Source: a virus (lineage: Duplodnaviria > Heunggongvirae > Uroviricota > Caudoviricetes). From it: 10,226 bases of DNA. The stretch is from the IMG/VR virus record IMGVR_UViG_2681813004_000013, positions 1-10,226 of that record. One strand, given 5' to 3'. Under the pieces are notes generated by a model that searched no databases, was not told where the DNA came from, and saw nothing but the letters and a program-made list of their open reading frames with translations. Made by a program: the position numbers and the translations under genes. Positions within the stretch are counted from its first letter, which is position 1. Each line of letters begins with the position of its first letter. Shown one piece after another: positions 1 to 10,226 of the stretch.

Positions 1-233
1 TTAACCTGGTCGCATTTTTCCTTCGACAGCTTCATTCCCGGTATGACGGGCTTACCATCCACCATTGTGGCACCACGACAGATGGTCCATATACCGGAAC
101 CATCGCGGTATGCCGTAGTGTGGTTACCCTCTTTTTCATCCAGAAACTGGTCAAGTATTTGAGGAGCAGATGCGCCTGCTCCAATCAGCGCCAGAACGAC
201 CGCTGACAGGCCGTATTTGATTTTTGCGTTCAT
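1..233 (-). CDS. Phage endolysin (lysozyme, T4-lysozyme/GH24-like) with N-terminal SAR-type signal-anchor; only the 5' part of the gene is in the window (it continues past coordinate 1)
   Basis: Minus-strand ATG at 231-233 opens a frame with no stop before the window edge. Translation starts MNAKIKYGLSAVVLALIGAGASAPQILDQFLDEKEGNHTTAYRDGSGIWTICRGATMVDGKPV: a Gly/Ala-rich weakly hydrophobic N-terminus followed by an E...D...T spacing typical of SAR endolysins such as phage 21 R. It sits downstream of a pinholin gene. Not in the ORF track because it is truncated by the window edge. Confidence 0.8.
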   Translation of the reverse strand, partial: MNAKIKYGLSAVVLALIGAGASAPQILDQFLDEKEGNHTTAYRDGSGIWTICRGATMVDGKPVIPGMKLSKEKCDQV

Positions 234-338
234 GGATATTTATCAGGATTTATCGGTTTCTGAACCCTGGATATGTTTATCTGTCCCGGCCTGTTGAATC
301 AGGCGGGGAAAAGGTAAAGACAATCAAGAGGATTATTT

Positions 339-611
339 ATGGACAATAACACCATTTCTCTACAGGAGTTGCTCGACTGCATTTCCAGGCTTCGGGATGA
401 TGTAAATGCCCTCACTGTTGCATTTTCATATCTGGCTTTCTCAATTCCCAAAGAACAAATGAAACCAACACTGGCATCGCTTCTGCTTGAGTCACGCAAC
501 CCCAAATGGTCCCAGGAACAACAAAATTCTTTCAAGTGGCTGGCGGCATTACTGGAAGAAAAATATGCTGGTAAAATTACCATTTCGGTGGAGTCTTCAG
601 AGAACCAGTAA
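339..611 (+). CDS. Hypothetical 90-aa protein, moron-like insert transcribed opposite to the lysis genes
   Basis: ATG at 339 is preceded by AAGAGGA (326-332) with a 6-nt spacer. The translation is protein-like (amphipathic, no low-complexity runs), whereas the overlapping minus ORF 299-646 is Ser/Cys-rich and GTG-initiated. A plus-strand intrinsic terminator follows at 654-682. No family recognised. Confidence 0.55.
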   Translation: MDNNTISLQELLDCISRLRDDVNALTVAFSYLAFSIPKEQMKPTLASLLLESRNPKWSQEQQNSFKWLAALLEEKYAGKITISVESSENQ

Positions 612-921
612 TTCTTCCCGGTAGCTTTCCTTTGTAGGTTATCCACACATTATGCGCCTCTAAAATTACGGGGCGCTTTTCCGGCGACTGCTCACTCCCT
701 TCACATAACCCGGCAGCAACATCCAGGAAGACCTGTCTGATGCTCCTTCTGGCTGCTGCCTCATAAAACTCCAGCGCGGCACCTTCAACACGGTCCAGCG
801 AGATGTCCAGGTCAAAAATTTCACCGTCAAAGCGTTTTTTGTCCCGTAACGCTAAAGTTACCGTAACTTTATTCTCAAAATTGCGGATCCCTTTCACAAT
901 CAGTTCATAGTTTTGAGTCAT
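577..921 (-). CDS. YdfR-like small protein of lambdoid lysis cassettes (DUF1327-like); C-terminal part possibly altered by the adjacent insert
   Basis: ATG at 921 with GGGGAGAG SD about 9 nt upstream, 4 nt after the holin stop (926). Its position between holin and endolysin matches the essQ-ydfR-rrrQ order recalled for the Qin prophage. The 3' 100 nt overlap the plus-strand moron ORF and its terminator. Confidence 0.55.
   Translation of the reverse strand: MTQNYELIVKGIRNFENKVTVTLALRDKKRFDGEIFDLDISLDRVEGAALEFYEAAARRSIRQVFLDVAAGLCEGSEQSPEKRPVILEAHNVWITYKGKLPGRITGSLKTPPKW
654..682 (+). terminator. Putative rho-independent terminator for the plus-strand moron ORF
   Basis: GCGCCTC (654-660), 9-nt loop, GGGGCGC (670-676; 7-bp stem with one G-U), then TTTTCC (677-682). 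Lies 43 nt after the stop of ORF 339-611. Confidence 0.4.
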
Positions 922-925
922 TGAA

Positions 926-1141
926 TTACTCTCCCCGTGCAGCCTTACGCTTGTCTTCTTTAATCTTGAAATAAAGGTTTGTCAGATACGTCAGCAAGCC
1001 AAATACCAGACTACCCAGCACACCTATTGCCGCCCACTGTGAGGGCGTGACTTTATCGAGCAACTGTAAAAACCAGTACCCGGCACTACCTGCTGAGGTG
1101 CCATAGGCGACACCCGTTGTTAACTTATCCATGGATTTCAT
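926..1141 (-). CDS. Class II holin of the phage 21 S (pinholin) family with dual-start motif
   Basis: Translation [71 protein letters not shown] (71 aa): two TM segments, a charged C-terminus, and the Met1-Lys2-Ser3-Met4 start arrangement known from S21 (antiholin/holin pair). GAGGTGGGG SD upstream of ATG 1141. The ORF track extends it to a GTG at 1204, which I consider less likely to be the start. Confidence 0.85.
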
Positions 1142-1208
1142 AACCCCACCTCGCAGATGCGGGTGCTGTGTAATGGAAATAAAAAGGCCACCTGACGTGG
1201 CCACCAGA

Positions 1209-2141
1209 TTATTTCCCCACCAGCTCGTTTATCTCTTTCACTGTCTGGTTAAACCGCTCTGACTCAAGCTCAACACCTAAGGCCCGACGCCCCAGCGCCA
1301 TTGCTGCTTTTATTGTGGAACCGGATCCCATAAAAAAATCAGCAACCAGATCACCTGGTCGACTACTGGCATTGATTATTTGCCTGAGCATATCCGCCGG
1401 TTTCTCACACGGATGTTTCCCCGGGTAGAACTGAACGGGTTTATGCATCCAGACATCGGTATAAGGCACGGAGACTGATACGGAGAAATAGCGCCGGAGA
1501 GATTTAAACTCATCCAGCAATTCAGAATATTTGCGATTCAGTGAATCATAAGATGCCACCAGCTGGTGGTGTGGTTGTTCCAGTTGTTGTTCCTGAAACT
1601 TCTCTGCCGCTATACGGGAAAACAGTGCCTGTAACTTCCGATAGTCAGCCTCATTCGGCAACTGCCACTGACTGGCACCAAACCAGTGGGAAACCATATT
1701 TTTCTTACCTGTGGCTTCGGCAATTTGTTTTGCCGTTATACCCAGTTCGGCACGAGCATCCCTGAAATACGATATCAGCGGTGCCATTATGTGCTGTTTG
1801 AGTTCCCTTTCTTTTGCCGCATAGCCGTCACTTTTGCCGCGATATGGCCCCTGGTAATGTTCAGCAAACAGAACGCGCTCTGTGGCAGGAAAATATGCGC
1901 GCTGACTTTCTTTATTACACCCATTCCAACGTCCGGACGGCTTCGCCCAGATGATATGGTTAAGCACGTTGAAACGTTCACGCATCATGATCTCAATATC
2001 AGATGCCAGGCGATGCCCACAGAACAGGTAAAGGCTTCCGGCAGGTTTTAACACCCGCCAGAACTGGGCCAGACAGTGGTCCAGCCACTTAAGGTAATCT
2101 TCGTCCCCTTTCCACTGATTGTCCCAACCGTTAGGTTTCAC
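1209..2141 (-). CDS. DNA methyltransferase, N6_N4 (beta-class, CcrM-like) family; apparently lacks the N-terminal DPPY catalytic region (possible 5'-truncated remnant)
   Basis: C-terminal motifs HPCEKP and DFFMGSGST (motif I, FxGxG) plus internal [12 protein letters not shown] and NHIIWAKP match beta-class MTase signatures. No D/S-PPY motif is found upstream of RVLKP in the ORF or in the in-frame upstream extension, which runs into tRNA-Thr. The first start codon is GTG at 2141, with AAGGGAG about 10 nt upstream. Confidence 0.6.
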
Positions 2142-2187
2142 CTTCAGTCTGCTCCCTTTGGCCGCTCGGGAACCCCACCGGACTTGA

Positions 2188-2263
<76 letters not shown>

Positions 2264-2265
2264 AC

Positions 2266-2341
2266 TGGACCGCCACCGGGGACTCGAACCTCGCACACTC
2301 AACTTAAAGGGTTGACGCTCTTTCCTGATGGCTAGTGGCGG
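2266..2341 (-). tRNA. Atypical tRNA-like gene (positional anticodon UUU, loop CCUUUAA); possibly degenerate
   Basis: Minus-strand CCGCCACTAGCCATCAGGAAAGAGCGTCAACCCTTTAAGTTGAGTGTGCGAGGTTCGAGTCCCCGGTGGCGGTCCA has a perfect 7-bp acceptor stem, T-loop TTCGAGT, encoded CCA and a perfect 5-bp anticodon stem TCAAC/GTTGA. Position 33 is C instead of U, the D-stem is only 2-3 bp, and the T-stem has one A-C mismatch. Confidence 0.5.
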
Positions 2342-2342
2342 T

Positions 2343-2418
2343 TGGTGGCCCTTGCTGGATTTGAACCAGCGACCTGGCGATTATGAGTCGCTCGCTCTCA
2401 CCACTGAGCTAAAGGGCC
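2343..2418 (-). tRNA. tRNA with CAU anticodon, ileX/ileZ-like (tRNA-Ile2 reading AUA after lysidine modification, or tRNA-Met)
   Basis: Minus-strand GGCCCTTTAGCTCAGTGGTGAGAGCGAGCGACTCATAATCGCCAGGTCGCTGGTTCAAATCCAGCAAGGGCCACCA: canonical cloverleaf, anticodon loop CTCATAA. It is close to the E. coli ileX sequence as I recall it. Confidence 0.85.
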
Positions 2419-2446
2419 GAGCCAAAAAATAATAATCAGATGAAAA

Positions 2447-3160
2447 TCAATAATCAAGCCCTTGCCTGGATACATATCTGTCTGGCGGGAAGCCATAATA
2501 GCGGTGAAATACAGAAATAAAGTAGGACCTGCTTGAATAACCGCATTTTTCTGCTATAGCCTGTCCATATCCATGCCGGGAACATAACATATTTACAGCA
2601 ACACGCATCCGCTCTTCCAGCAACAAGCGACTGAACATGCCCCCTTCATTTTTCAGTTTTGTCTTTAACAAACTCTCACTCATATGCAACTGTAGAGCAA
2701 TCGCACCAAGCGTCCAGCTTGCTGATATATCTGTCTGAATTATCGCCCTGACTTTGGCACTTATGCTGGATAAACATCCACTTAAAAACAATGACATCCG
2801 TTCATCTGTTTCAAACAGAGACAGGCAGGCCATCATAAGAAACATATCCGTGGCCTCTCCGGAAAATCCCTGGCTGGTAATTAAAGCCGCAGCCAACGCA
2901 GGATTGTTGGGTTCCAGCAACAGGTAAAGCGGAATGTCAGTCAGACGAGTCCTCGTCAGCTTATGCTGACTTTCCAGATATTGACTTACGACGGATTCGC
3001 TTATATCGACAATTTTAACTTTGCCATAATGCATAAGGAAAAGCTCCCTGATGCATTTGGTGGCCAGAACAACTGAGCCTGGCTTAAGTGACAACGTATC
3101 CTTTTCAAGAAAAATATTAATTGGGGAGCAAACCATGATAACTGAACAGACAACAGCCAT
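2447..3160 (-). CDS. AraC-family transcriptional regulator, AppY-like (prophage-encoded regulator type)
   Basis: The C-terminal 100 aa carry the AraC double-HTH signature (…IAEKCGYSSRSYFISVFHRYYGFPPDRY). The N-terminus MAVVCSVIMVCSP…KVKIVDI aligns with the N-terminus of E. coli AppY as I recall it (MDYVCSVVFICQS…KLRIVDI). ATG at 3160 sits in an AT-rich leader. Confidence 0.8.
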   Translation of the reverse strand: MAVVCSVIMVCSPINIFLEKDTLSLKPGSVVLATKCIRELFLMHYGKVKIVDISESVVSQYLESQHKLTRTRLTDIPLYLLLEPNNPALAAALITSQGFSGEATDMFLMMACLSLFETDERMSLFLSGCLSSISAKVRAIIQTDISASWTLGAIALQLHMSESLLKTKLKNEGGMFSRLLLEERMRVAVNMLCSRHGYGQAIAEKCGYSSRSYFISVFHRYYGFPPDRYVSRQGLDY

Positions 3161-3280
3161 TATAATTTTACTTTCATTAGCAATTGGTTAGCTCAATTAT
3201 AGCCCCAAAAGGTAAATTATCATCAACACATAAGCAAAGGACTGACAGGTGTCGCCCCCCACCAGCCGCCCATTCACCAC

Positions 3281-3307
3281 AAATAAAAAGCCTTCAGGAC
3301 TGAAGGC
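3281..3307 (-). terminator. Rho-independent terminator after the small wHTH gene
   Basis: Minus-strand RNA GCCUUCA-GUCC-UGAAGGC followed by UUUUUAUUU. The hairpin overlaps the UGA stop at 3294-3296. Confidence 0.55.
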
Positions 3308-3491
3308 GTCTGTAACAACCGCACTGATAGTCTGCCAGACCCGCCATAACAAGTTGGGTCAGTATTAACTGGCAGCGTTCGCGTGAAAGGTAAGTATTCT
3401 GCGCAATCTCCCCGACTGTCGCCGGTTCGGTAACGCTTAATTCATCAAACACAACTCTGGCGGTTTCTGTCATATCCTGCTGTTTCAGCAT
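3294..3491 (-). CDS. Small (65 aa) putative winged-helix DNA-binding protein
   Basis: ORF with its own downstream terminator. The segment ATVGEIAQNTYLSRERCQLILTQLVMAGL resembles a wHTH recognition helix (PapI/FaeA-like proteins come to mind). The start codon is ambiguous: ATG at 3491 or ATG at 3473. Confidence 0.45.
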   Translation of the reverse strand: MLKQQDMTETARVVFDELSVTEPATVGEIAQNTYLSRERCQLILTQLVMAGLADYQCGCYRRLQS

Positions 3492-3614
3492 GTCTTTTTA
3501 CCCTTTCCGGTTAACGTGACATACCAATAACTCTTGTCCAAAAAGCCAGCAAGCAGAAAGACCGGTATTCGCAACCACCAGCGTATTTAACGCCCCGTGC
3601 CGTTTTTCAGTCAT

Positions 3615-3638
3615 AAAAAAACCCGCAAAAAGCGGGCT
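3615..3638 (-). terminator. Rho-independent terminator after the ORF6N-like gene
   Basis: On the minus strand, GCCCGC-UUUUU-GCGGGU followed by a 7-U run (plus-strand A-run at 3615-3621). About 100 nt downstream of the stop at 3735. Confidence 0.6.
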
Positions 3639-3734
3639 CTTTCAAATGTCCATGTCTGCTATTCGCCTCGCGGTACAGCTTTGCGAAGCGTACCGGAATT
3701 GAAGCAGTTTATGGCTAAAATTGCAAGAACTTTT

Positions 3735-4346
3735 TTAAAGCTGCATCAGCCTTTCCACCAGTTTATCTCTGCGAACAACAAACCAACCATTGGCTCTCGC
3801 CAGTTCCAGCCATGACTCAAGGGAAATAACAATATCATCATCCCGCAACTGAATTGTGGAAACAGTGACACCGCCTCGCTGATAACAGAGAACTCGCGTG
3901 TCGTAACTTTTCTGGCATGAAGCTGGCGCTGACGGATCCTTTTGTCTGAAATAGCACTCTTCCAGTTTTTCGAACACATCCCACGCCTGATCGGTTTCGA
4001 GCATTTTGGCGTGACGGGCTGCTCCGCGTTCTGTCCAGAGAATGAGGGAGCGGGCTTTCGGGGAAATTTGTAACCCTCTTAAAGATGGTTGCAAATTTTG
4101 TGAGTTACTTAAAGTAACCCGCAAATTTTGTGAGTAGTTTAAAGCTACCCGCAATTCTTTAAGGTCATTACCAACAACTTTGAAAAAGTGTTTCCCTTCA
4201 ACGAAGCGTACTTTGTTCTCATGATGATTCTGGCGAATGCGCACCGGCTCAGTGCCGTAAAGCTGCGCCAAAAGTTCGGTGGTAATAACAGGAATCTGGT
4301 TATGGGTGATCGGGGAGAGAGTTTCAACAGAAATTTGAGTTGTCAT
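3735..4346 (-). CDS. Phage antirepressor-like protein with N-terminal ORF6N-type domain and internal 10-aa tandem repeats
   Basis: ATG at 4346 with AGAGGG SD about 8 nt upstream. The N-terminal segment VITTELLAQLYGTEPVRIRQNHHENKVRFVEGKHFFKVVGNDLKEL fits the ORF6N antirepressor N-domain pattern as I recall it. The central region encodes repeats LRVALNYSQN / LRVTLSNSQN / LQPSLRGLQI from a 30-bp tandem DNA repeat. Confidence 0.5.
   Translation of the reverse strand: MTTQISVETLSPITHNQIPVITTELLAQLYGTEPVRIRQNHHENKVRFVEGKHFFKVVGNDLKELRVALNYSQNLRVTLSNSQNLQPSLRGLQISPKARSLILWTERGAARHAKMLETDQAWDVFEKLEECYFRQKDPSAPASCQKSYDTRVLCYQRGGVTVSTIQLRDDDIVISLESWLELARANGWFVVRRDKLVERLMQL
4090..4149. repeat. Two tandem 30-bp repeats (25/30 identical), each containing a short dyad-symmetric core, inside the ORF6N-like CDS; degenerate partial copies flank them (about 4063-4165)
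   Basis: Unit 1 is gcaaattttgtgagttacttaaagtaaccc; unit 2 is gcaaattttgtgagtagtttaaagctaccc. The cores are GTTAC-ttaaa-GTAAC and GTAG-tttaaag-CTAC. Four of the five differences between units fall at paired positions and preserve the dyad. Confidence 0.8.
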
Positions 4347-4505
4347 AATGACGCCCTCTGGTGGTTTCTTAATAACTCACCACCGACGACGCCAATCATC
4401 TGGTGGTGAACTGTGCGGGGTTGGCGTAACCGGGAAACCGACCGGCGCGGATCTCTCCGCCCCCACACAGCCCACCATAATTCAGATGTGCGCGTGCATA
4501 CGACA

Positions 4506-4529
4506 ATAAAAAACACGCTCGCGGCGTGT
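4506..4529 (-). terminator. tR'-like intrinsic terminator of the short late leader transcript
   Basis: Minus strand ACACGC-CGCGA-GCGUGU followed by UUUUUUAUUG. Lies about 70-80 nt downstream of the putative late promoter. Confidence 0.6.
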
Positions 4530-4590
4530 ATCTGTCGCGGTCTCTATCCAGGACGCCAATCCCGACGCCAGATTTTGCTGGCGCGTGAGG

Positions 4591-4620
4591 AATATAGCCC
4601 CGGATAACAGATTGAGTCAA
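4591..4620 (-). promoter_or_regulatory. Putative Q-dependent late promoter (pR'-like)
   Basis: Minus strand TTGACT (4620-4615), 17-18 bp spacer, then CTATAT/TATATT (4597-4591). The -35 overlaps the Q stop codon. Directly followed by the short leader and terminator, as in lambdoid late regions. Confidence 0.5.
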
Positions 4621-5183
4621 CAGACGGTTTTTAGATCCCCGGAAGAGAATGCATCACGCATCGGCAGATAGAGCATAAACTCTGCCATTTTCAACCACGC
4701 ATCTATGCGATTACGGCACGTGGCGTAACACCACTCAGGGTGTGAATCATTCAGCAATTCAGCCATTTTGCGCTTAGTCATCCCCCGCCCCACATAACGC
4801 TGACTCAGAACATTGAGCAGCCCGGGATAACCTGCCAGTACTTCACCAATAACCCTGTCGATTATTAACGCCTCTGAATCGGTACAATGTGCCAGCCAGC
4901 TTTTTTGATTGCCGTTGATCATATCCCGCAAAAAAGCCTCAAGTTCAGGTTTGTCCAGACCCGCTTTTTTCATCCTCCGGAGCGCCTCGTTAATTGCCGT
5001 TTTTGTCAGCTTTTTAGAGGTCAGTAATTGGTTGAACATATTTCCCGTCTTACCGTCGCCAATATACGACCAACGCCCCCACATACGCAGTTTCCCCTGG
5101 ATCCAGACACTTTCCAGCGTTTTCAGGCGTAAATGCTCACCGCTTTTGCCTGTAATTTCCGGGTATATCATATTTATGCTCAC
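4617..5183 (-). CDS. Late-gene antitermination protein Q (lambdoid Q-like)
   Basis: Sits between rusA and the pR'/tR'-like elements, the canonical Q position. Size is 184-188 aa; the MWGRWSY motif resembles the RWGRW segment recalled from E. coli prophage Q homologues. The track start is GTG at 5183, overlapping the rusA stop; an in-frame ATG at 5169-5171 is the more likely start. Confidence 0.65.
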   Translation of the reverse strand: MSINMIYPEITGKSGEHLRLKTLESVWIQGKLRMWGRWSYIGDGKTGNMFNQLLTSKKLTKTAINEALRRMKKAGLDKPELEAFLRDMINGNQKSWLAHCTDSEALIIDRVIGEVLAGYPGLLNVLSQRYVGRGMTKRKMAELLNDSHPEWCYATCRNRIDAWLKMAEFMLYLPMRDAFSSGDLKTVC

Positions 5184-5545
5184 TCACTTTCAATTTTGTA
5201 AATCTTCACGCCCAGCCGCCCAACAGAAACGAGCTGACCGCGCACAATATTGATTTCATCAAACTGCTCGTCGTCTATGAGAAGTCCGGCATGCGTCAGC
5301 GCATCCAGCGGTGCTTTCAGAATGTTGTCCAGGTCACGGCGGCGCTTATCCGGTGGCTCTGCAATAATTTTTATTGCCAGCCTTCCGGACAGGTTTAATT
5401 TCAACCTCTGCTGGCGAACAATAAGCGCCACATCACGGCGATAACGCTTTCCGGCCTCCGAGATGAAATACGTATTGCCATGACGTCGCCAGTAGGTATT
5501 CACCGTCGGCGGGTAAGGCAAAACAAATTCTATCCGTTCAGTCAT
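5180..5545 (-). CDS. rusA: Holliday junction resolvase RusA
   Basis: Translation MTERIEFVLPYPPTVNTYWRRHGN…PPDKRRRDLDNILKAPLDALTHAGLLIDDEQ matches the RusA family signature (P-P-S/T-x-N-x-Y, RRRDLDN, D-D acidic pair). The ATG directly abuts the upstream stop (TGAATG). Confidence 0.9.
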   Translation of the reverse strand: MTERIEFVLPYPPTVNTYWRRHGNTYFISEAGKRYRRDVALIVRQQRLKLNLSGRLAIKIIAEPPDKRRRDLDNILKAPLDALTHAGLLIDDEQFDEINIVRGQLVSVGRLGVKIYKIESE

Positions 5546-6604
5546 TCATGCTTTCCACTTCAGGACACCCGAATTTCTCGCGTGCATTAAAAAACGAATC
5601 AGCAACAACAGCTGGCTGCCGTGTTTCTCTTCAAATTCTCTTACCCCGGCATGTAGCTCGTTATGGCAGCGTCTACACAACGGAATAACAAACAAATCGT
5701 CAGCCTTTGTTCCCGTTCCCCCCAGTCCATGACCAATGATGTGATGCGGATCATCTGCCTGATTGCCACACGCCATGCACTTCTGCGTTTTTACCCACCG
5801 CGTGTATATCGGCATCTCTTCACGTTGTGGTTTCTGGCGTCTGAGGTATTGAGCAGGAGACTCCGGATCAACAGTTATGCTGACCACCGCTTTTTCCTGT
5901 TGTGGGTTCTGTTGCTGGTGGGCGTAAGGCAACGGCGCAAGATTTTTTGTGCGCTGCTTCAGTATGCTGGTGGCGCTCTGCTCTCCCGGTACGATGTCGC
6001 TTTCACGGTACATTGAGCGGATTTTTTCCGCACGCAACCCCAGCGAACGACGTAATACCGCTTCCGGTAGCGCGTCCGCCACCTGATTGCGGACCGCCCA
6101 CCAGGATAATTCAGCCAGAGATAATTCCCGTTCCTGTGCACCACTTATTGCGTGACGTATGACGTCAATCATCCAGGCTGTCAGATTTTGTTGAGCAAGC
6201 TGCCCGAGTGATTCGGATGTCTGGTCACGCAGCTGGTTGTCGCAGTGCCAGCACAACACCATTGCGCCGGTACCATAACGGTGAATGACGGTTTCACTGT
6301 GGTGATAATCGCCGTGTGGCCACTGGCAGGATTTAACATGACGCAGTAACCAGTCAGACAATGCGCCAGCGCCACCAGCAGCACGAATCACTCGTTCGTC
6401 GCTGAAAAATGGCAGTAATGATTTATCCTCCGCCAGCGGCTGGCGAACGGCAGGAACGACCCCAGACGGCAGATTACGCATGCTTTTCGGTTCCGGCTCC
6501 ACCAGTACCCGGGTATTGTGGAATACCGGCATGGATTCACGGCCCGGCTTAACGATCACCAGCCCGAGTTCCGGTACCAGAACAGGTCGAAGTAATACCC
6601 GCAC
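5546..6604 (-). CDS. DUF968-family prophage protein (YdfU-like) with C-terminal HNH-like zinc motif
   Basis: 352 aa with a GTG start preceded by GGAGG. The C-terminus CMACGNQADDPHHIIGHGLGGTGTKADDLFVIPLCRRCHNELH has CxxC…HH…CxxCH spacing typical of HNH-type nuclease folds. It occupies the position upstream of rusA/Q that YdfU holds in Qin-like prophages. Confidence 0.7.
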   Translation of the reverse strand: MRVLLRPVLVPELGLVIVKPGRESMPVFHNTRVLVEPEPKSMRNLPSGVVPAVRQPLAEDKSLLPFFSDERVIRAAGGAGALSDWLLRHVKSCQWPHGDYHHSETVIHRYGTGAMVLCWHCDNQLRDQTSESLGQLAQQNLTAWMIDVIRHAISGAQERELSLAELSWWAVRNQVADALPEAVLRRSLGLRAEKIRSMYRESDIVPGEQSATSILKQRTKNLAPLPYAHQQQNPQQEKAVVSITVDPESPAQYLRRQKPQREEMPIYTRWVKTQKCMACGNQADDPHHIIGHGLGGTGTKADDLFVIPLCRRCHNELHAGVREFEEKHGSQLLLLIRFLMHARNSGVLKWKA

Positions 6605-6605
6605 G

Positions 6606-6890
6606 TTACCTCCAGAGCCGTTGCTGGAATGTGCGGGACGGACGCGGTGGGCGTTCGGAGTAAGGAAGCCTGACGGAGATTATCCAGTGACGATAATCGA
6701 GGCTGAGGGCTTCCCTAAACTCATACCCACGCCTGCGGTAGTTCTGAATCAGCCATTCGGCCTGTTCTTCAGTGCATGGGTCATGCTGATACCAGTCATA
6801 TTTGAATGTGTGAGAACGCCGCCCGTGCCTACTGGCAAAGACGGCTGAATTATCAGAATTGTTAATTTTTTTGTAATGCACCACTACCAT
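6606..6890 (-). CDS. Hypothetical 94-aa protein
   Basis: ORF whose stop lies 1 nt from the DUF968 GTG start, suggesting translational coupling. A palindromic TATAAT (6935-6940) lies upstream. The SD is poor (GAGG directly abutting the ATG), so the true start is uncertain. No family recognised. Confidence 0.4.
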   Translation of the reverse strand: MVVVHYKKINNSDNSAVFASRHGRRSHTFKYDWYQHDPCTEEQAEWLIQNYRRRGYEFREALSLDYRHWIISVRLPYSERPPRPSRTFQQRLWR

Positions 6891-6950
6891 CCTCGTAATG
6901 GTGCGACAGACGCCAGTTGTTCAGGCTGGCTTTAACTATAGCATTATAAT

Positions 6951-7118
6951 CTAGTCTTTCTTAATGCTGAAGTGACTGACCGAATCCGCATGCGATTCTT
7001 TGGTGATCAGAATAACATCGGGTGGCAATGGCATTACGATAAATTCACCATTCTCAAGAACTATTACTTCATAATTACCAGATACAGAAAGCGCAGCAAT
7101 TAATTCCTTATCATTCAT
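6951..7118 (-). CDS. Possible small protein (55 aa), not in the ORF track
   Basis: Hand translation gives MNDKELIAALSVSGNYEVIVLENGEFIVMPLPPDVILITKESHADSVSHFSIKKD. Protein-like composition, but only a weak SD (AGGG about 9 nt upstream). Confidence 0.3.
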   Translation of the reverse strand: MNDKELIAALSVSGNYEVIVLENGEFIVMPLPPDVILITKESHADSVSHFSIKKD

Positions 7119-7236
7119 AACAAAACCCTATGAACTTTTAACATTTCCCCTTAAGGGGTCCATCCCTCTTCTCCCTGCGCGCTACTTAAGTATTTTTGAT
7201 TCTATTCCGGCACCTTCAAAAAGCTCAAACGTCTTG

Positions 7237-7270
7237 AAAATAAACAACAAAAAACCCGCCGAAGCGGGTT
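7237..7270 (-). terminator. Rho-independent terminator of the hok transcript
   Basis: Minus-strand RNA AACCCGC-UUCG-GCGGGUU (UUCG tetraloop) followed by UUUUGUUGUUUAUUUU. About 70 nt downstream of the hok stop. Confidence 0.75.
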
Positions 7271-7338
7271 AAGTGCGGGTGCGTTGAGGATGCCTGACAC
7301 ATCAGAGGTGGCGAGGGATTTCTCCCCCGCCGGGTCTC

Positions 7339-7494
7339 TTACTCCTCAGGTTCGTAAGCTGTGAAGACAGCGACCTCCGTCTGGCCGGTTCGGATTCGTA
7401 CCTCGCAGAGGTCTTTCCTCGTTACCAGTGCCGTCACTATGACGGTTAAACAGATGACGATCAGGGCGATTAACATCGCCTTTTGCTGCTTCAT
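7339..7494 (-). CDS. Hok-family type I toxin (membrane-depolarising peptide), HokD/Gef-like
   Basis: Hand translation gives MKQQKAMLIALIVICLTVIVTALVTRKDLCEVRIRTGQTEVAVFTAYEPEE (51 aa), which carries the canonical Hok signature (TM helix, then TRK-LCE-R-G--EVAAF-AYE). AAGGAG SD upstream. Not in the ORF track because it is shorter than 60 aa. Confidence 0.85.
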   Translation of the reverse strand: MKQQKAMLIALIVICLTVIVTALVTRKDLCEVRIRTGQTEVAVFTAYEPEE

Positions 7495-7614
7495 AGCCTG
7501 CTTCTCCTTGACCTTTCGGTCCGTAAGAGGCTAATCTCTATGTGTCGCATAGATATGGCCTCAGATTAATGTTAAGCGTCTTGCCGGACGCGTAATGTTA
7601 ACTGGGGCTTTTCT

Positions 7615-7650
7615 CTGTCTGCCTTACGGCGGCATGCCCGAGGCAGACAG
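7615..7650 (-). promoter_or_regulatory. Long stem-loop in the presumed hok mRNA leader (9-bp stem, 18-nt loop containing the palindrome GGCATGCC)
   Basis: ctgtctgcc (7615-7623) pairs with ggcagacag (7642-7650). No U-run follows on either strand, so it is not a terminator. It lies in the region where hok-family loci carry mok/sok/fbi-type RNA elements. Confidence 0.35.
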
Positions 7651-7711
7651 CCTCAAGCACCCGCAGCAATTCTACTTAACTCTCGCTTTACAGCAAACCG
7701 TTTTTGCCCGA

Positions 7712-7727
7712 TATGGGAATTCCCATA
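7712..7727. repeat. Perfect 16-bp palindrome TATGGGAATTCCCATA
   Basis: Exact dyad centred on GAATTC, in the intergenic space between the stop of the 34-aa peptide gene (7738) and the hok leader. A candidate operator or RNA hairpin. Confidence 0.7.
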
Positions 7728-7737
7728 CGGAATGAAT

Positions 7738-7842
7738 TCAGTTCCCCAGGCGATCCATCAAAAACACAACCAGGCAGTAAACACCCACAACAGCAATAAC
7801 AGCCAGAGCGCCTTCCATTACCAGTGAAATATCATCCGACAT
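7738..7842 (-). CDS. Small hydrophobic peptide (34 aa, single predicted TM helix)
   Basis: Hand translation gives MSDDISLVMEGALAVIAVVGVYCLVVFLMDRLGN. The ATG is preceded by a very strong SD, AAGGGAGGG, with a 4-nt spacer. A promoter-like TTGCTA…TAGTAT/TATATG lies upstream (minus strand, about 7880-7910). Confidence 0.5.
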   Translation of the reverse strand: MSDDISLVMEGALAVIAVVGVYCLVVFLMDRLGN

Positions 7843-7951
7843 ATTCCCTCCCTTGGTGTGAATTCCGGCGAACGTTTTTACCCCCACCGACAAATAACAT
7901 ATACTAGAAAAGCAATAGCTATAGCAACGCCTGCAAATGCATCGGGCCGGC

Positions 7952-8785
7952 TCATTGGTGCGCCCCCTGTATCGCTTCTACTGCGATCTGACTGGCGTAT
8001 TTGTTAATGGTAACGATAAGTTCTTGCTCGGCCTCATCCAGACAACCACCGATACCTCGCCTGTCACCTTCAGAAGCATCGAAATCTGCACGAACCCTGG
8101 CGACCTTCAGGATTGCGGACAACACCTCATCAGGGATTGCCGGAGAGTTGGTTGACGTTTCCGAGGTTATCCGAAAATTATTGGTTGACGAATTCTTATT
8201 TTCCCGAAAGTTTTCGGCATGAAGCATGGCGGTGTTATACCCATCCGCGAAAATCTCTGCTTCTTCGTTATTCAGTTCGGCACCAAGTTTAAGCGCAATA
8301 GCTTTTGCCATTGAGGCGGTAATTTGATGGCATGGCTGACGTCCATGAAGCATGGCGTCGCTCCGCTCTATGCCATCCAGCGCAATTCGAAGCGCATGAA
8401 TTGTAGTAATGCTATCGTTTGGGGTTATTCCGTATCGTTCGAATACAGCGATATGGTTGCGCATAATCGCAGGTGTAAGCTCTTTGTAAGCAAGAGCAAG
8501 AGGTCCAGATACATCGTTCAGCACTACCGTCATCGGTGAGGCGGCGTAGACTTCAATAATCCCAGTATCAATAGGCCATTCCCCATCCTTGATATAGTAA
8601 CTTGTTCCGTCAACTTGCTGTTCTACAATGTGGAAAGCACCTATTGGTTCTGCTTCCAGCGATGCCAGTGCAATTTTGAATAACTCGCCCTCTACCCGTG
8701 CCATCCCTGAATTGGGGTAGCATTTCGCAATCGCTATTTTTAATTTGGCTTCTTCGATTAATTTCTCTTTGGTTAATTCAGTCAC
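7952..8785 (-). CDS. Hypothetical 277-aa protein of unknown function (two predicted domains joined by a Ser/Thr/Asn-rich linker)
   Basis: Long ORF with protein-like composition. The only in-frame start at the 5' end is GTG at 8785, served by a hairpin-bridged AGGAGG. The linker is NSSTNNFRITSETSTNSPAIP. No family recognised from the sequence. Confidence 0.6.
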   Translation of the reverse strand: MTELTKEKLIEEAKLKIAIAKCYPNSGMARVEGELFKIALASLEAEPIGAFHIVEQQVDGTSYYIKDGEWPIDTGIIEVYAASPMTVVLNDVSGPLALAYKELTPAIMRNHIAVFERYGITPNDSITTIHALRIALDGIERSDAMLHGRQPCHQITASMAKAIALKLGAELNNEEAEIFADGYNTAMLHAENFRENKNSSTNNFRITSETSTNSPAIPDEVLSAILKVARVRADFDASEGDRRGIGGCLDEAEQELIVTINKYASQIAVEAIQGAHQ

Positions 8786-8816
8786 TTTTCATTACCGCCC
8801 TTTCGGGCGGCCTCCT
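8783..8816 (-). promoter_or_regulatory. Structured translation-initiation region: AGGAGG, 16-nt GNRA-type hairpin, then GTG start
   Basis: Minus-strand RNA AGGAGG-CCGCCC-GAAA-GGGCGG-UAAUGAAAA-GUG. The linear SD-to-start distance is 25 nt, reduced to about 9 nt if the 6-bp GC hairpin forms. Confidence 0.4.
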
Positions 8817-8820
8817 GACA

Positions 8821-9033
8821 TTAATCGTTGTGATAACTCATAGCTTCATTTGCAGCATCAACTGGATCAACATCCCACCAGCAATAATTTGGGTCGACAC
8901 CTTCAGGTGTCCACGGCTCTAATTCATTTTTTGCTACATTCTCGTCACCAGTAATTTTAAAAATCTGCTCAGAGAATTTTTTTACCCACTCGTTATATTT
9001 TTCCGCGTTAATGGTTTTCTGTGTATTTAACAT
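8821..9033 (-). CDS. Hypothetical 70-aa acidic protein
   Basis: ATG at 9033 with GGAGG SD and a 7-nt spacer. Translation MLNTQKTINAEKYNEWVKKFSEQIFKITGDENVAKNELEPWTPEGVDPNYCWWDVDPVDAANEAMSYHND. AT-rich relative to its neighbours. No family recognised. Confidence 0.55.
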   Translation of the reverse strand: MLNTQKTINAEKYNEWVKKFSEQIFKITGDENVAKNELEPWTPEGVDPNYCWWDVDPVDAANEAMSYHND

Positions 9034-9078
9034 AGATATACCTCCGGTTAAGGATTAAATTTTATTTACAGTGCTGAT

Positions 9079-9438
9079 TTAATATTCAGTTCTGGCTTTT
9101 GTTGCCCTGCGTATCCGCGCTTTCGCGTTACGCTCAATCTGAATTAGCTTTTCTATATTTTTTCGCCTTTCCTGTTCCTCCTGGCGCAATAGCCTTACAT
9201 CATCTGCCAGTCTGGTTTCTCTTTTAGCCACAGAGAGCATCCAGTCAAACGGCTCCACAACTGCACCACAGATTTTGCAGCGGACCTGACGCTCTTTTTC
9301 GTCAACCCGGACAGAAGCGTGATGGCAGTATGGTCTTTCCGATGGCTCATAAAGAAAATTAACCTGATTACGTGGGTCATCCTCTTTTACCGGAAATAAA
9401 ACGATATTGCTTAACTCATCTTCTGGTTTTATTTCCAT
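9079..9438 (-). CDS. Hypothetical 119-aa protein with a Cys/His cluster (putative zinc ribbon) and a basic coiled-coil C-terminus
   Basis: Preferred start is ATG at 9438, preceded by AAAGGAGAGGAG; the track's TTG at 9489 has no SD. Contains YCHH…(15)…CKIC, then a Lys/Arg/Glu-rich helical tail. Confidence 0.55.
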   Translation of the reverse strand: MEIKPEDELSNIVLFPVKEDDPRNQVNFLYEPSERPYCHHASVRVDEKERQVRCKICGAVVEPFDWMLSVAKRETRLADDVRLLRQEEQERRKNIEKLIQIERNAKARIRRATKARTEY

Positions 9439-9495
9439 GCTCCTCTCCTTTGATGCGAATGCCAGCGATAATTGAAGCCTGATAGCCAATTTTAC

Positions 9496-9915
9496 TCACA
9501 GCCCCCCCTGATAATTTCCCTGATAAAACGCCAGCACTCGCTGCATAACTTCGCTCTTCCGGCACTCGCGACAGATTATATTCAGGCGCCTGTCGTAGCG
9601 ACGTATTTCTCCGTCTGGTAATGACCATATAAGGTCAGGATCAACCACAACCGGTTTCTTCAGCTTTGCCCTCGATAATTTTTTGCGGGCGTTTTGCCAG
9701 TCCTTACGAGCCTGTTCAGAGGGGAATAATCCGTAGCCTGAATTGTAAACATCACCACTGGCGACCAGTTCTCTGGCGAGAGTGCTTATGTAATACCTTG
9801 ATGCACCGGTTTTAGCCTCCAGAGCCCGTAACGTCTCGCGACCGCTCAGACGTACAAGTTCAATAACCTGCCCTTTAATTTTTTCTCGCTCTTCTTGTGT
9901 AAAAACTTTTGCCAC
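9496..9915 (-). CDS. Hypothetical 139-aa protein with probable helix-turn-helix
   Basis: GTG start with AGGAGG SD and a 4-nt spacer. The segment RETLRALEAKTGASRYYISTLAREL is HTH-like. A C-terminal CRECRK motif is present. Confidence 0.5.
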   Translation of the reverse strand: MAKVFTQEEREKIKGQVIELVRLSGRETLRALEAKTGASRYYISTLARELVASGDVYNSGYGLFPSEQARKDWQNARKKLSRAKLKKPVVVDPDLIWSLPDGEIRRYDRRLNIICRECRKSEVMQRVLAFYQGNYQGGL

Positions 9916-9955
9916 AAGTCCTCCTGAAAATTACCTCGTGACCTGAAATAAACAC

Positions 9956-10226
9956 TTACCCCCTGAAGCCCGGTGGAATTTCGGTATCCGGTTCAGAAAT
10001 ATGATTCACACAACGCTGGTTGTTCGTGCCGCTTACCGGGAGCAACCAGGGGTTTTCAAAATTTCGGTCCGGTCCAAAAAACGTCGTCGCTCGCTGAACA
10101 AATTCCGTTCCAGTTTTCCCGGTAACCGCCAGATATCTTGCGTAACGCCTCACGCCATCCAGCATGGCCTCTGGTGGCACCCCCTCGCGTAATCTGGCCT
10201 TCCAGGCACTGAAAGCGGATTTCTTC
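9956..10226 (-). CDS. 3' end of an early-region gene of unknown function (the start lies beyond the window end)
   Basis: The minus-strand frame is open from the window edge to the TAA at 9956-9958. The track's Met at 10180 is an internal GTG codon. The translation …AFSAWKARLREGVPPEAMLDGVRRYARYLAVTGKTGTEFVQRATTFFGPDRNFENPWLLP… is protein-like. Confidence 0.45.
   Translation of the reverse strand, partial: KKSAFSAWKARLREGVPPEAMLDGVRRYARYLAVTGKTGTEFVQRATTFFGPDRNFENPWLLPVSGTNNQRCVNHISEPDTEIPPGFRG

Follow-up and report, generated by a model that had tools for sequence, protein, structure and literature searches.

What is a tandem repeat of self-complementary units doing inside the coding sequence of a phage protein? 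The question arises from a 10,226-nucleotide (nt) stretch of tailed-phage DNA (IMG/VR record IMGVR_UViG_2681813004_000013, positions 1 to 10,226; hereafter, the window), in which an ORF6N-domain gene of the AnrP/Ant-like antirepressor family carries a 30-bp repeat whose units can each fold back on themselves. A sequence-only reading of the window had seen in these units a sign of selection on a nucleic-acid structure or a dimeric binding site, beyond the encoded 10-residue protein repeat, and had named iterons, operators and tandem RNA hairpins as candidates. Here we report that the window repeat is a local amplification of a 27–33-nt self-complementary element, that this element is exclusive to ORF6N genes and that, as homologous sequences show, it is an obligatory, family-wide feature at one homologous position of the ORF6N domain.

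Tandem Repeats Finder (TRF) described the repeat as 30 nt in period, with 2.1 copies and 85% matches at 4091–4154; it spans 10 codons and lies in frame within open reading frame (ORF) 3735–4346 on the minus strand, which Pfam assigns to ORF6N, as had been surmised. One 30-bp unit consists of a 27-nt palindrome and a 3-nt spacer (the AAT codon), and three such palindromes, designated B, A and C in coding order, are spaced exactly 30 nt from centre to centre (Table 1). On the coding strand they read TTG CGG GTA GCT TTA AAC TAC TCA CAA AAT (unit B, LRVALNYSQN), TTG CGG GTT ACT TTA AGT AAC TCA CAA AAT (unit A, LRVTLSNSQN) and TTG CAA CCA TCT TTA AGA GGG TTA CAA ATT (unit C, LQPSLRGLQI). Units within one array have 16–25 of 30 nt in common, and the module type of unit C (PSLRG) occurs as the perfect palindrome CCCTCTTTAAGAGGG in other genera. 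Between the two full units there are five differences in the register 4091/4121 (six in the register 4090/4120). Two pairs of these, 4106/4116 (T-A to A-T) and 4107/4115 (A-T to G-C), are true compensatory changes, and the fifth difference, C to T at 4108 with its partner unchanged, leaves T.G on the plus strand and C.A on the mRNA strand; the earlier statement that four of the five differences are paired and compensated therefore holds, as two compensated pairs. The 4–5-bp dyads of the sequence-only reading are real but understate an element of 27–33 nt that is present in three units and throughout the family, and of the degenerate flanking copies that it mentioned, the one on the coding-strand 3′ side is a genuine third palindrome (unit C), whereas the 5′ copy at 4158–4184 forms none. 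An independent inverted-repeat search returned 4092–4110/4112–4130 as the longest inverted repeat of the window, and the window contains eight palindromes in which 10 or more of the 13 arm pairs form, compared with a mean of 1.1 in shuffles.

We next turned to homologues, fetching 160 loci with relatives of the gene (one genome per species, plus IMG/VR) and defining the linker as the segment from the conserved GKHFF motif to the LWTERGA motif. At least 9 of 12 arm pairs were present in 101 of the 104 distinct proteobacterial ORF6N linkers, the figure for codon shuffles being 5.6%. Of these linkers, 80 hold a palindrome of 15 nt in which 6 or all 7 pairs form (17% of codon shuffles), and in 30 it is perfect (0.85%). 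The palindromes themselves vary widely in sequence, and include GTTACTTTAAGTAAC (VTLSN), GTAGCTTTAAACTAC (VALNY), CCCTCTTTAAGAGGG (PSLRG), CTTACTTTAAGTAAG (LTLSK), GTGTCTTTAAGACAC (VSLRH), GTCACTAATAGTGAC (VTNSD), CTGACTAATAGTCAG (LTNSQ) and GTATCTCAAAGATAC (VSQRY), among many others. In some homologues the arms extend to 13–16 bp, with 16 of 16 arm pairs in Acinetobacter (AATTTGCGACTGACTT-A-AAGTCAGTCGCAAATT) and Roseospira (CCGAGCAGAGGGTCTT-A-AAGACCCTCTGCTCGG), and the hairpins of such extended-arm homologues are predicted at −20 to −30 kcal/mol, the value of −30 being that of Rhodospirillales.

Analysis of 105 distinct modules revealed 1,060 Watson–Crick pairs, 49 G.T, 60 A.C and 91 other combinations at arm positions 2–13. 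Positions 3–13 each use two to four types of Watson–Crick pair, and position 11 is paired in all 105 modules (G-C in 51, C-G in 50 and T-A in 4). Modules following Leu-Arg (LR class) and those following Phe-Lys-x-Arg (FK class) were selected by position, independently of palindromicity, and were compared with 500 shuffles and with slid-register controls. Pairing amounted to 86.8% in the LR class, compared with 74.4% when shuffled (0 of 500 shuffles) and 26–45% in slid registers, and to 88.3% in the FK class, compared with 69.7% (0 of 500) and 28–36%. Double-change cells numbered 78 against 26.5 in shuffles for the LR class, with a covariation of 0.38 against 0.16 (both 0 of 500), and 89 against 34.3 for the FK class, with a covariation of 0.49 against 0.19; double, compensatory changes occurred at 8–9 of the 12 pairs. 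Each class conserves the centre CT...AG and, further out, TTGC/GCAA or ACAG/CTGT, while positions 4–7 vary and are still complementary; the central 3–5 nt vary in many homologues. The dyad that had been noticed in two units is thus maintained among homologues through many compensatory changes. As a separate observation, 32 of 43 distinct LR-class modules have a C.A mismatch (Arg CGN opposite Ser TCA), located in the window at 4121/4101 and 4151/4131, which persists although a single synonymous change (TCA to TCG) would mend it. The mismatch may simply be tolerated, or it may be a deliberate asymmetry by which the hairpin of the non-coding strand, where the pair is G.T, becomes the more stable one.

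The symmetry also extends to codon choice. The third base of the Val codon predicts the partner codon, with GTA facing TAC (Tyr) in 17 cases, GTT facing AAC (Asn) in 8, GTG facing CAC (His) in 7 and GTC facing GAC (Asp) in 2, with few exceptions, and TTG is likewise coupled with CAA, AGA with TCT, CTG with CAG and CTT with AAG. The residue pairs that reverse-complement codons allow are V with N, Y, H or D, L with K, E or Q, T with S, S with R, and P with G. In a check at the protein level only, on 122 cluster representatives at no more than 50% identity, a nine-residue window in which all four codon pairs could be reverse complements was found in 34%, compared with 2% in shuffles. Furthermore, the palindrome is read in all three frames. 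Its centre falls on codon position 2 in most genes, on position 3 in Acinetobacter-type genes (where TTTGCGACTGACT... encodes EFATDLKSVANF, elsewhere NLRLTxSQLQI) and on position 1 in Rhodospirillales and in the canonical ORF6N subfamily. Because synonymous choice tracks the partner codon and the palindrome is read in different frames, selection on the protein cannot account for the palindrome, and the constraint acts on the nucleic acid. Covariation, codon coupling and the use of three frames together uphold the earlier proposal of a nucleic-acid-level constraint beyond the protein repeat. They equally refute an ordinary protein tandem repeat, a 10-residue minisatellite with coincidental dyads, which we dismiss even though the unit is in frame and polymorphic in copy number.

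To cover the canonical branch of the family, a hand-written consensus (FPEDFMFQLT...AFTEQGVAMLS) served as the query and retrieved 80 canonical loci from viral contigs; they are 60–76% identical to the query and share about 20% identity with the window protein. In these genes the palindrome is located at the RSQ(I/F)VTS motif, in a position that aligns with the Escherichia coli module, and at least 9 of 12 pairs were present in 39 of 39 distinct canonical linkers, compared with 6.9% of shuffles. Examples are GTTTGAGGTCACAA-A-TTGTGACCTCAAAC, with 14 of 14 arm pairs, GAGGTGCCAAATTGGCACCTC (RCQIGTS), GAAGTCGCAATTTGCGACTTC (KSQFATS), GTCATCACAATTTGTGATGAC (SSQFVMT) and GACATTCCAAATTGGAATATC (TFQIGIS). 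Palindromes with at least 11 of 13 pairs numbered 178 in 24.9 kb of linkers and 20 in the remaining 373 kb of the fetched loci; of the latter, several belong to ORF6N paralogues nearby. A scan of all IMG/VR with the pattern TTTGC-N6-CTTWAAG-N6-GCAAA placed every match with at least four of six N positions paired in an ORF6N gene or remnant; the remaining matches were unpaired chance matches, and an N7-spaced pattern used as a negative control returned only non-palindromic chance matches. The linker and flank counts and the IMG/VR scan rule out a dispersed palindromic mobile element of the repetitive extragenic palindromic (REP), Rickettsia palindromic element (RPE) or miniature inverted-repeat transposable element (MITE) kind.

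The number of units differs among strains, the point on which the sequence-only reading had suggested a check. The window gene has matches in 874 of 5,426 complete E. coli genomes, from which a subset of alleles was fetched, and E. coli homologues and viral contigs carry one to four units per allele. Single-unit alleles read LRVALNYSQN-PISPK, LRLTLSKSQN-PISPK or LRTSQRGLQ-ISPK, two-unit alleles are B-C or A-C, three-unit alleles have the arrangement of the window gene and the four-unit alleles L005 and L006 are B-A-A-C, with unit A duplicated. Because the fetched alleles carry one, two, three or four units, the array is a polymorphic in-frame minisatellite, that is, a variable-number tandem repeat (VNTR) with head-to-tail copies of a unit that is a multiple of three. 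Among homologues a single module predominates (64 of 104 distinct linkers), and amplification has proceeded with periods of 30 and 33 nt. Locus L025 (Acinetobacter chengduensis, about 1150–1260) has modules in two reading-frame registers in one gene, and loci L015 (Symbiopectobacterium) and L280 (IMG/VR) have three to five modules with a 33-nt period or with spacers; these genes therefore indicate independent amplification in several lineages.

We then asked whether the constraint is a matter of DNA or RNA. G.T and A.C mismatches are about equally frequent among the 105 modules, and canonical genes have 5 and 17, respectively. Of the two hairpins of a module, the sense one had the greater predicted stability in 47 modules and the antisense one in 44; they averaged −10.9 and −11.1 kcal/mol, respectively. 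Complementarity often continues through the centre of the palindrome, which also favours DNA over mRNA. For the window units, predicted energies on the mRNA and plus strands are −7.3 and −9.0 kcal/mol (B), −9.4 and −9.0 (A) and −5.2 and −9.9 (C), so that plus-strand hairpins are overall at least as stable. Folding of the minus-strand RNA, which the sequence-only reading had proposed, surpassed shuffles over a 161-nt region (z = −2.5), as did folding of the region as DNA (z = −2.7). The signature of a structured RNA, with G.U far in excess of A.C and better folding in the sense orientation, was not seen, and since the sequences are related this weakens an RNA reading without doing more; the tandem RNA hairpins of the earlier proposal drew no support from either measure. 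Because the G.U signature is absent and both strands are equally stable, DNA-level symmetry or a mutational drive is favoured, and the data point to a constraint on symmetry or intra-strand pairing of DNA, whether as a dyad in the duplex, as a hairpin of one or the other strand or as a cruciform.

The predicted structure of the product is relevant here. An AlphaFold2 model built from 67 diverse representatives had a mean predicted local distance difference test (pLDDT) score of 77, with a core above 90; a model from 26 close relatives, a shallow alignment, gave an N-domain pLDDT below 50 and was unusable. The core of the product shows a moderate match to a MerR/Xis-like winged-helix fold, and the ORF6N product is plausibly a DNA binder. 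Unit B is placed at the end of a long helix (residues 59–79), and units A and C in a low-confidence insert (mean of 57 for the block 71–80; below 50 for residues 80–91) that precedes a strand at 100–105. The module region would thus be a tolerant segment of variable length, in agreement with the phmmer alignments of many homologues, which break exactly at this segment. Searches of the PDB by sequence or profile found no relative.

The reading that we place first, tentatively and at somewhat less than even likelihood, is that of a self-associated, DNA-level cis element of the ORF6N gene, which would act by autogenous binding or as a roadblock and in which the symmetry would be that of a duplex dyad or an extruded structure. 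It is ranked first because the ORF6N coding sequence is its sole constant partner, the product has a putative DNA-binding fold and the symmetry is shared by both strands; the gene itself is the sole constant partner because the element follows it into unrelated contexts, namely the nin region, positions downstream of Q, and plasmids. In our view the coupled changes of the two arms are most probably single events of template switching between them, and the element would be retained since it acts in cis for its own gene. Its likeliest role would be to provide the gene's own ORF6N product with a recognition or roadblock site, giving autogenous control of an antirepressor that needs to stay tightly off, and extra copies of the unit would raise occupancy or dose. 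The more specific proposal, that the ORF6N family carries its own putative recognition site in its coding sequence, that the winged-helix product binds the palindrome, hairpin or cruciform for autogenous, cis-preferential control, and that phages tune the dose by amplification, is distinctly unlikely; were it true, each change of the site, both arms of which are translated, would alter two residues together, and reverse-complement codon pairing would be a visible rule of protein evolution. Template-switch conversion probably supplies the compensatory changes under any model.

Several observations weigh against a self-associated DNA site. The dyad and the bases conserved within classes might suit a dimeric operator, but the complementarity of the variable positions 4–7 is not something that a sequence-reading dimer requires; this covariation and the unlike units (GTAG, GTTA and CCAT) fit pairing as such better than they fit such a dimer. 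A repairable C.A persists in the LR class, as given above, and CCA...GGG persists in unit C, so that any drive to perfect pairing is limited. No copies that might serve as targets were found outside ORF6N genes. The match to a winged-helix fold is moderate, and Foldseek against the PDB gave no significant match. Finally, the argument from strand symmetry draws on related sequences with few mismatches.

The foremost rival, itself unlikely, is a set of stem-loops in the ant/anrP mRNA that would exert post-transcriptional control through RNase III-type cleavage, pausing of the ribosome, a block to 3′ exonucleases or recognition by an RNA-binding protein, with more units giving a stronger effect. 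It stays in contention despite the missing G.U signature because covariation and the unlike units favour pairing itself. Base-pair covariation of variable positions is what a folded strand classically shows, the predicted stabilities (−5 to −9 kcal/mol for the window units) are accompanied by folding of the 161-nt region better than shuffles, the central 3–5 nt vary freely in many homologues as a loop would, and the gene already belongs to an RNA-controlled module (isrK, C4; PMC4825925). Apart from the balance of G.U and A.C and the equal folding of the antisense strand, this rival has to contend with the restriction of the element to one domain family and one position, which would be unlikely for a generic hairpin recognized by a host factor, and with the Rfam searches, in which no family covered the repeat (sub-threshold noise only, such as rivX at 21.6 bits against a gathering score of 100) or the palindrome in six divergent loci.

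Somewhat less probable, though a serious rival, is a neutral, ancestral coding palindrome in a protein segment that would accept almost any sequence, kept symmetric by template-switch conversion only and without function, the tandem array being a product of slippage. Template switching has been proposed to keep perfect inverted repeats in Proteobacteria (PMC5941160, PMC8604942), and a neutral origin would agree with arm positions that evolve fast yet stay paired, with the absence of strand asymmetry, with the persistence of synonymously repairable mismatches and with a segment that is length-variable, modelled at low confidence and the place where phmmer alignments split. It accords poorly with the near-total retention of the palindrome (about 140 of 143 distinct linkers) in lineages whose proteins are only about 20% identical and whose G+C content differs strongly. 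Palindromes are deletion-prone and the loop tolerates deletion, yet no palindrome-free allele was encountered; other parts of these loci hold few strong coding palindromes, and the module has been amplified independently, with 30- and 33-nt periods.

An array of iterons or operators bound by another phage protein, such as a replication initiator, a repressor or a partition protein, is very improbable. Tandem dyad units inside the coding sequence of a DNA-binding-type protein, a spacing of 30–33 bp, close to three helical turns, and a copy number that differs among phages are all features that such an array would have. However, homologues mostly carry a single copy, units of the same array agree at too few of their 30 nt, and the element tracks the ORF6N gene through all the contexts listed above, so the iteron reading that was first suggested is a poor fit. 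Other candidates were rejected. A terminator scan of both strands found intrinsic terminators only at 4529–4513 and 3582–3561, none of them at the units; no slippery heptamer lies where a −1 frameshift would need it; stop codons inside the units exclude an overlapping plus-strand gene; and a CRISPR- or TIGR-like array or ToxI-like repeats were set aside, the units being contiguous within an ORF, without a ToxI or CRISPR match in Rfam and with Q-like, RusA and AraC-type neighbours. Likeness to attC, to IS200-type hairpins and to anticodon-loop mimicry had no supporting features.

Known systems provide partial parallels. Lambda-type ori iterons sit inside gene O. Like the ORF6N array, they are in-frame, dyad-symmetric repeats embedded in a phage gene for a DNA-binding protein, they vary in number among lambdoid phages and their DNA is both code and site; unlike it, they are near-identical and read by sequence, whereas the ORF6N arms differ and complementarity alone is kept, most ORF6N genes have one unit and there is no sign of an origin. 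The coding palindromes of Nematomorpha mitochondria (PMC6649704) are near-perfect inverted repeats with both arms translated, and they preserve the function of the protein alongside a strict secondary structure, but they reach 284 bp and are numerous and genome-wide in one organelle, whereas the ORF6N palindrome is short, occupies a single site in one domain family and spans bacterial phyla and phages. Template-switch (quasipalindrome) conversion is documented to produce coupled multi-nucleotide changes that keep arms identical and alter protein sequence (PMC5941160, PMC8604942, PMC7202029); it is a mutational mechanism and not an element, and has not been reported to keep one site across a domain family and several frames. 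The Gifsy-1 antQ-isrK-orf45-anrP-isrJ locus and the P1-type c4/ant locus (PMC4825925; RF01394, RF01695, RF03163) share with the window a Q-like gene, isrK, a C4-type RNA, a small coupled ORF and the ORF6N gene, but their known regulation acts at the leader and the ribosome-binding site (PMC4825925), and an intragenic palindrome is not part of the description.

A further parallel is with Rickettsia palindromic elements and with REP and MITE-like insertions, whose palindromic DNA is read in frame as part of host proteins; these elements are dispersed, mobile and found in many unrelated genes, whereas the palindrome described here was found in ORF6N genes only. Roi of phage HK022, which belongs to the same Bro/antirepressor network, reportedly binds a site inside its own gene (Clerget and Boccard, 1996), and is mentioned as an analogy only. 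It was rejected as a direct precedent, its N-terminal domain being of the pRha type rather than ORF6N and its gene having no comparable palindrome. In Stx phages roi adjoins an ORF6N ant gene (PMC3430580). Sites and structures in coding DNA, coding palindromes and template-switch homogenization are thus known kinds. Of a palindrome that is tied to a domain family, is independent of reading frame and imposes reverse-complement codon pairing on the protein we found no record, and literature searches on ORF6N, antirepressor VNTRs and antirepressor palindromes yielded no description of the element.

The element provides a natural case in which the symmetry of a nucleic acid overrides protein coding, in that it fixes residue pairs, survives changes of frame and persists across distant lineages, and the Pfam ORF6N signature (RSQxxTS or LRxxLxxSQ) may in part be the imprint of DNA symmetry and not of protein function. 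It also offers a tractable system for separating selection on structure from template-switch drive, and, in practical terms, the 30-bp unit is a marker that varies between strains in E. coli prophages. In phages of the Stx and Gifsy types it is ORF6N proteins (Ant, AnrP) that set off induction of the prophage; a cis element in their genes therefore bears on the control of toxin-phage induction. AnrP of Gifsy-1 is an antirepressor that induces the prophage (PMC4825925).

The window locus is a known Gifsy-1-type antQ-isrK-c4-anrP module, whose parts are listed in Table 1 with the palindromes.

Table 1 Coordinates of the palindromic units, the ORF6N gene and associated features in the window
Feature	Position	Strand	Details
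Palindrome unit B	4128–4154	−	TTGCGGGTAGCTT-T-AAACTACTCACAA; LRVALNYSQ, residues 65–73; centre 4141; 10/13 arm pairs
Palindrome unit A	4098–4124	−	TTGCGGGTTACTT-T-AAGTAACTCACAA; LRVTLSNSQ, residues 75–83; centre 4111; 11/13 arm pairs
Palindrome unit C	4068–4094	−	TTGCAACCATCTT-T-AAGAGGGTTACAA; LQPSLRGLQ, residues 85–93; centre 4081; 11/13 arm pairs
Tandem array (TRF)	4091–4154		Period 30, 2.1 copies
ORF6N-domain gene, AnrP/Ant-like antirepressor family	3735–4346	−	203 amino acids; Pfam ORF6N E = 5e-19; array in variable-length segment
Small ORF, 57 codons	4343–4516	−	Stop overlaps ORF6N start (ATGA); orf45 position of Gifsy-1
C4-type antisense RNA	4399–4482	−	Rfam RF01695, 67.8 bits (gathering score 45)
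isrK small RNA (sRNA)	4508–4584	−	RF01394, 75.5 bits
isrK terminator	4529–4513	−	Terminator scan
c4-a1b1 target motif	4545–4597	−	RF03163, 50.5 bits
Promoter-like site	4620–4591	−	Promoter scan
Q-like antiterminator gene	4617–5183	−	DUF1133/Phage_antitermQ
Weak second isrK-like match	3616–3689	−	19.8 bits, sub-threshold; just past ORF6N stop, isrJ position in Gifsy-1

C4-type RNA is a known regulator of ant genes. RNAs of the isrK and C4 types also lie upstream of ORF6N in Salmonella, Izhakiella, Leminorella, E. whittamii and Chromatium loci, and they were not detected in Acinetobacter, Rhodospirillales or canonical ORF6N loci; because the palindrome is present in these last three groups, it is distributed more broadly than the isrK/C4 module. 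Pairing of the C4 or isrK RNA with the palindrome units was set aside as a reading, the RNAs being G+C-rich and the units A+T-rich, and the known targets being located at the leader and the ribosome-binding site. In Pectobacterium (L014, 879–963) and Photorhabdus (L033, 881–964) the upstream RNA scores as sRNA-Xcc1 (RF02221, about 75 bits) and not as C4, which suggests that the two Rfam families are interchangeable upstream of ORF6N.

Another coding palindrome of the window, a perfect 9+1+9 palindrome at 853–871 (TAAAGTTAC-C-GTAACTTTA), lies in the unrelated minus-strand ORF 577–921 and encodes the peptide NKVTVTLA; it was considered as a control, but its 80 homologues are all at least 96% identical, so that covariation is uninformative there. 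The window belongs to a lambdoid prophage that has a moron-rich region between Q and the lysis genes. Neighbours of the ORF6N gene on the minus strand are a DNA methylase gene (1209–2141), a gene for an AraC-type helix-turn-helix regulator (2447–3160), a RusA resolvase gene (5180–5545) and a gene for a DUF968/HNH protein (5546–6604), and two tRNA genes are found on the same strand at 2191–2263 and 2346–2418. A sok antitoxin RNA is encoded at 7492–7662 (minus strand, 105.9 bits), with hok-type small ORFs nearby in a related annotated prophage.

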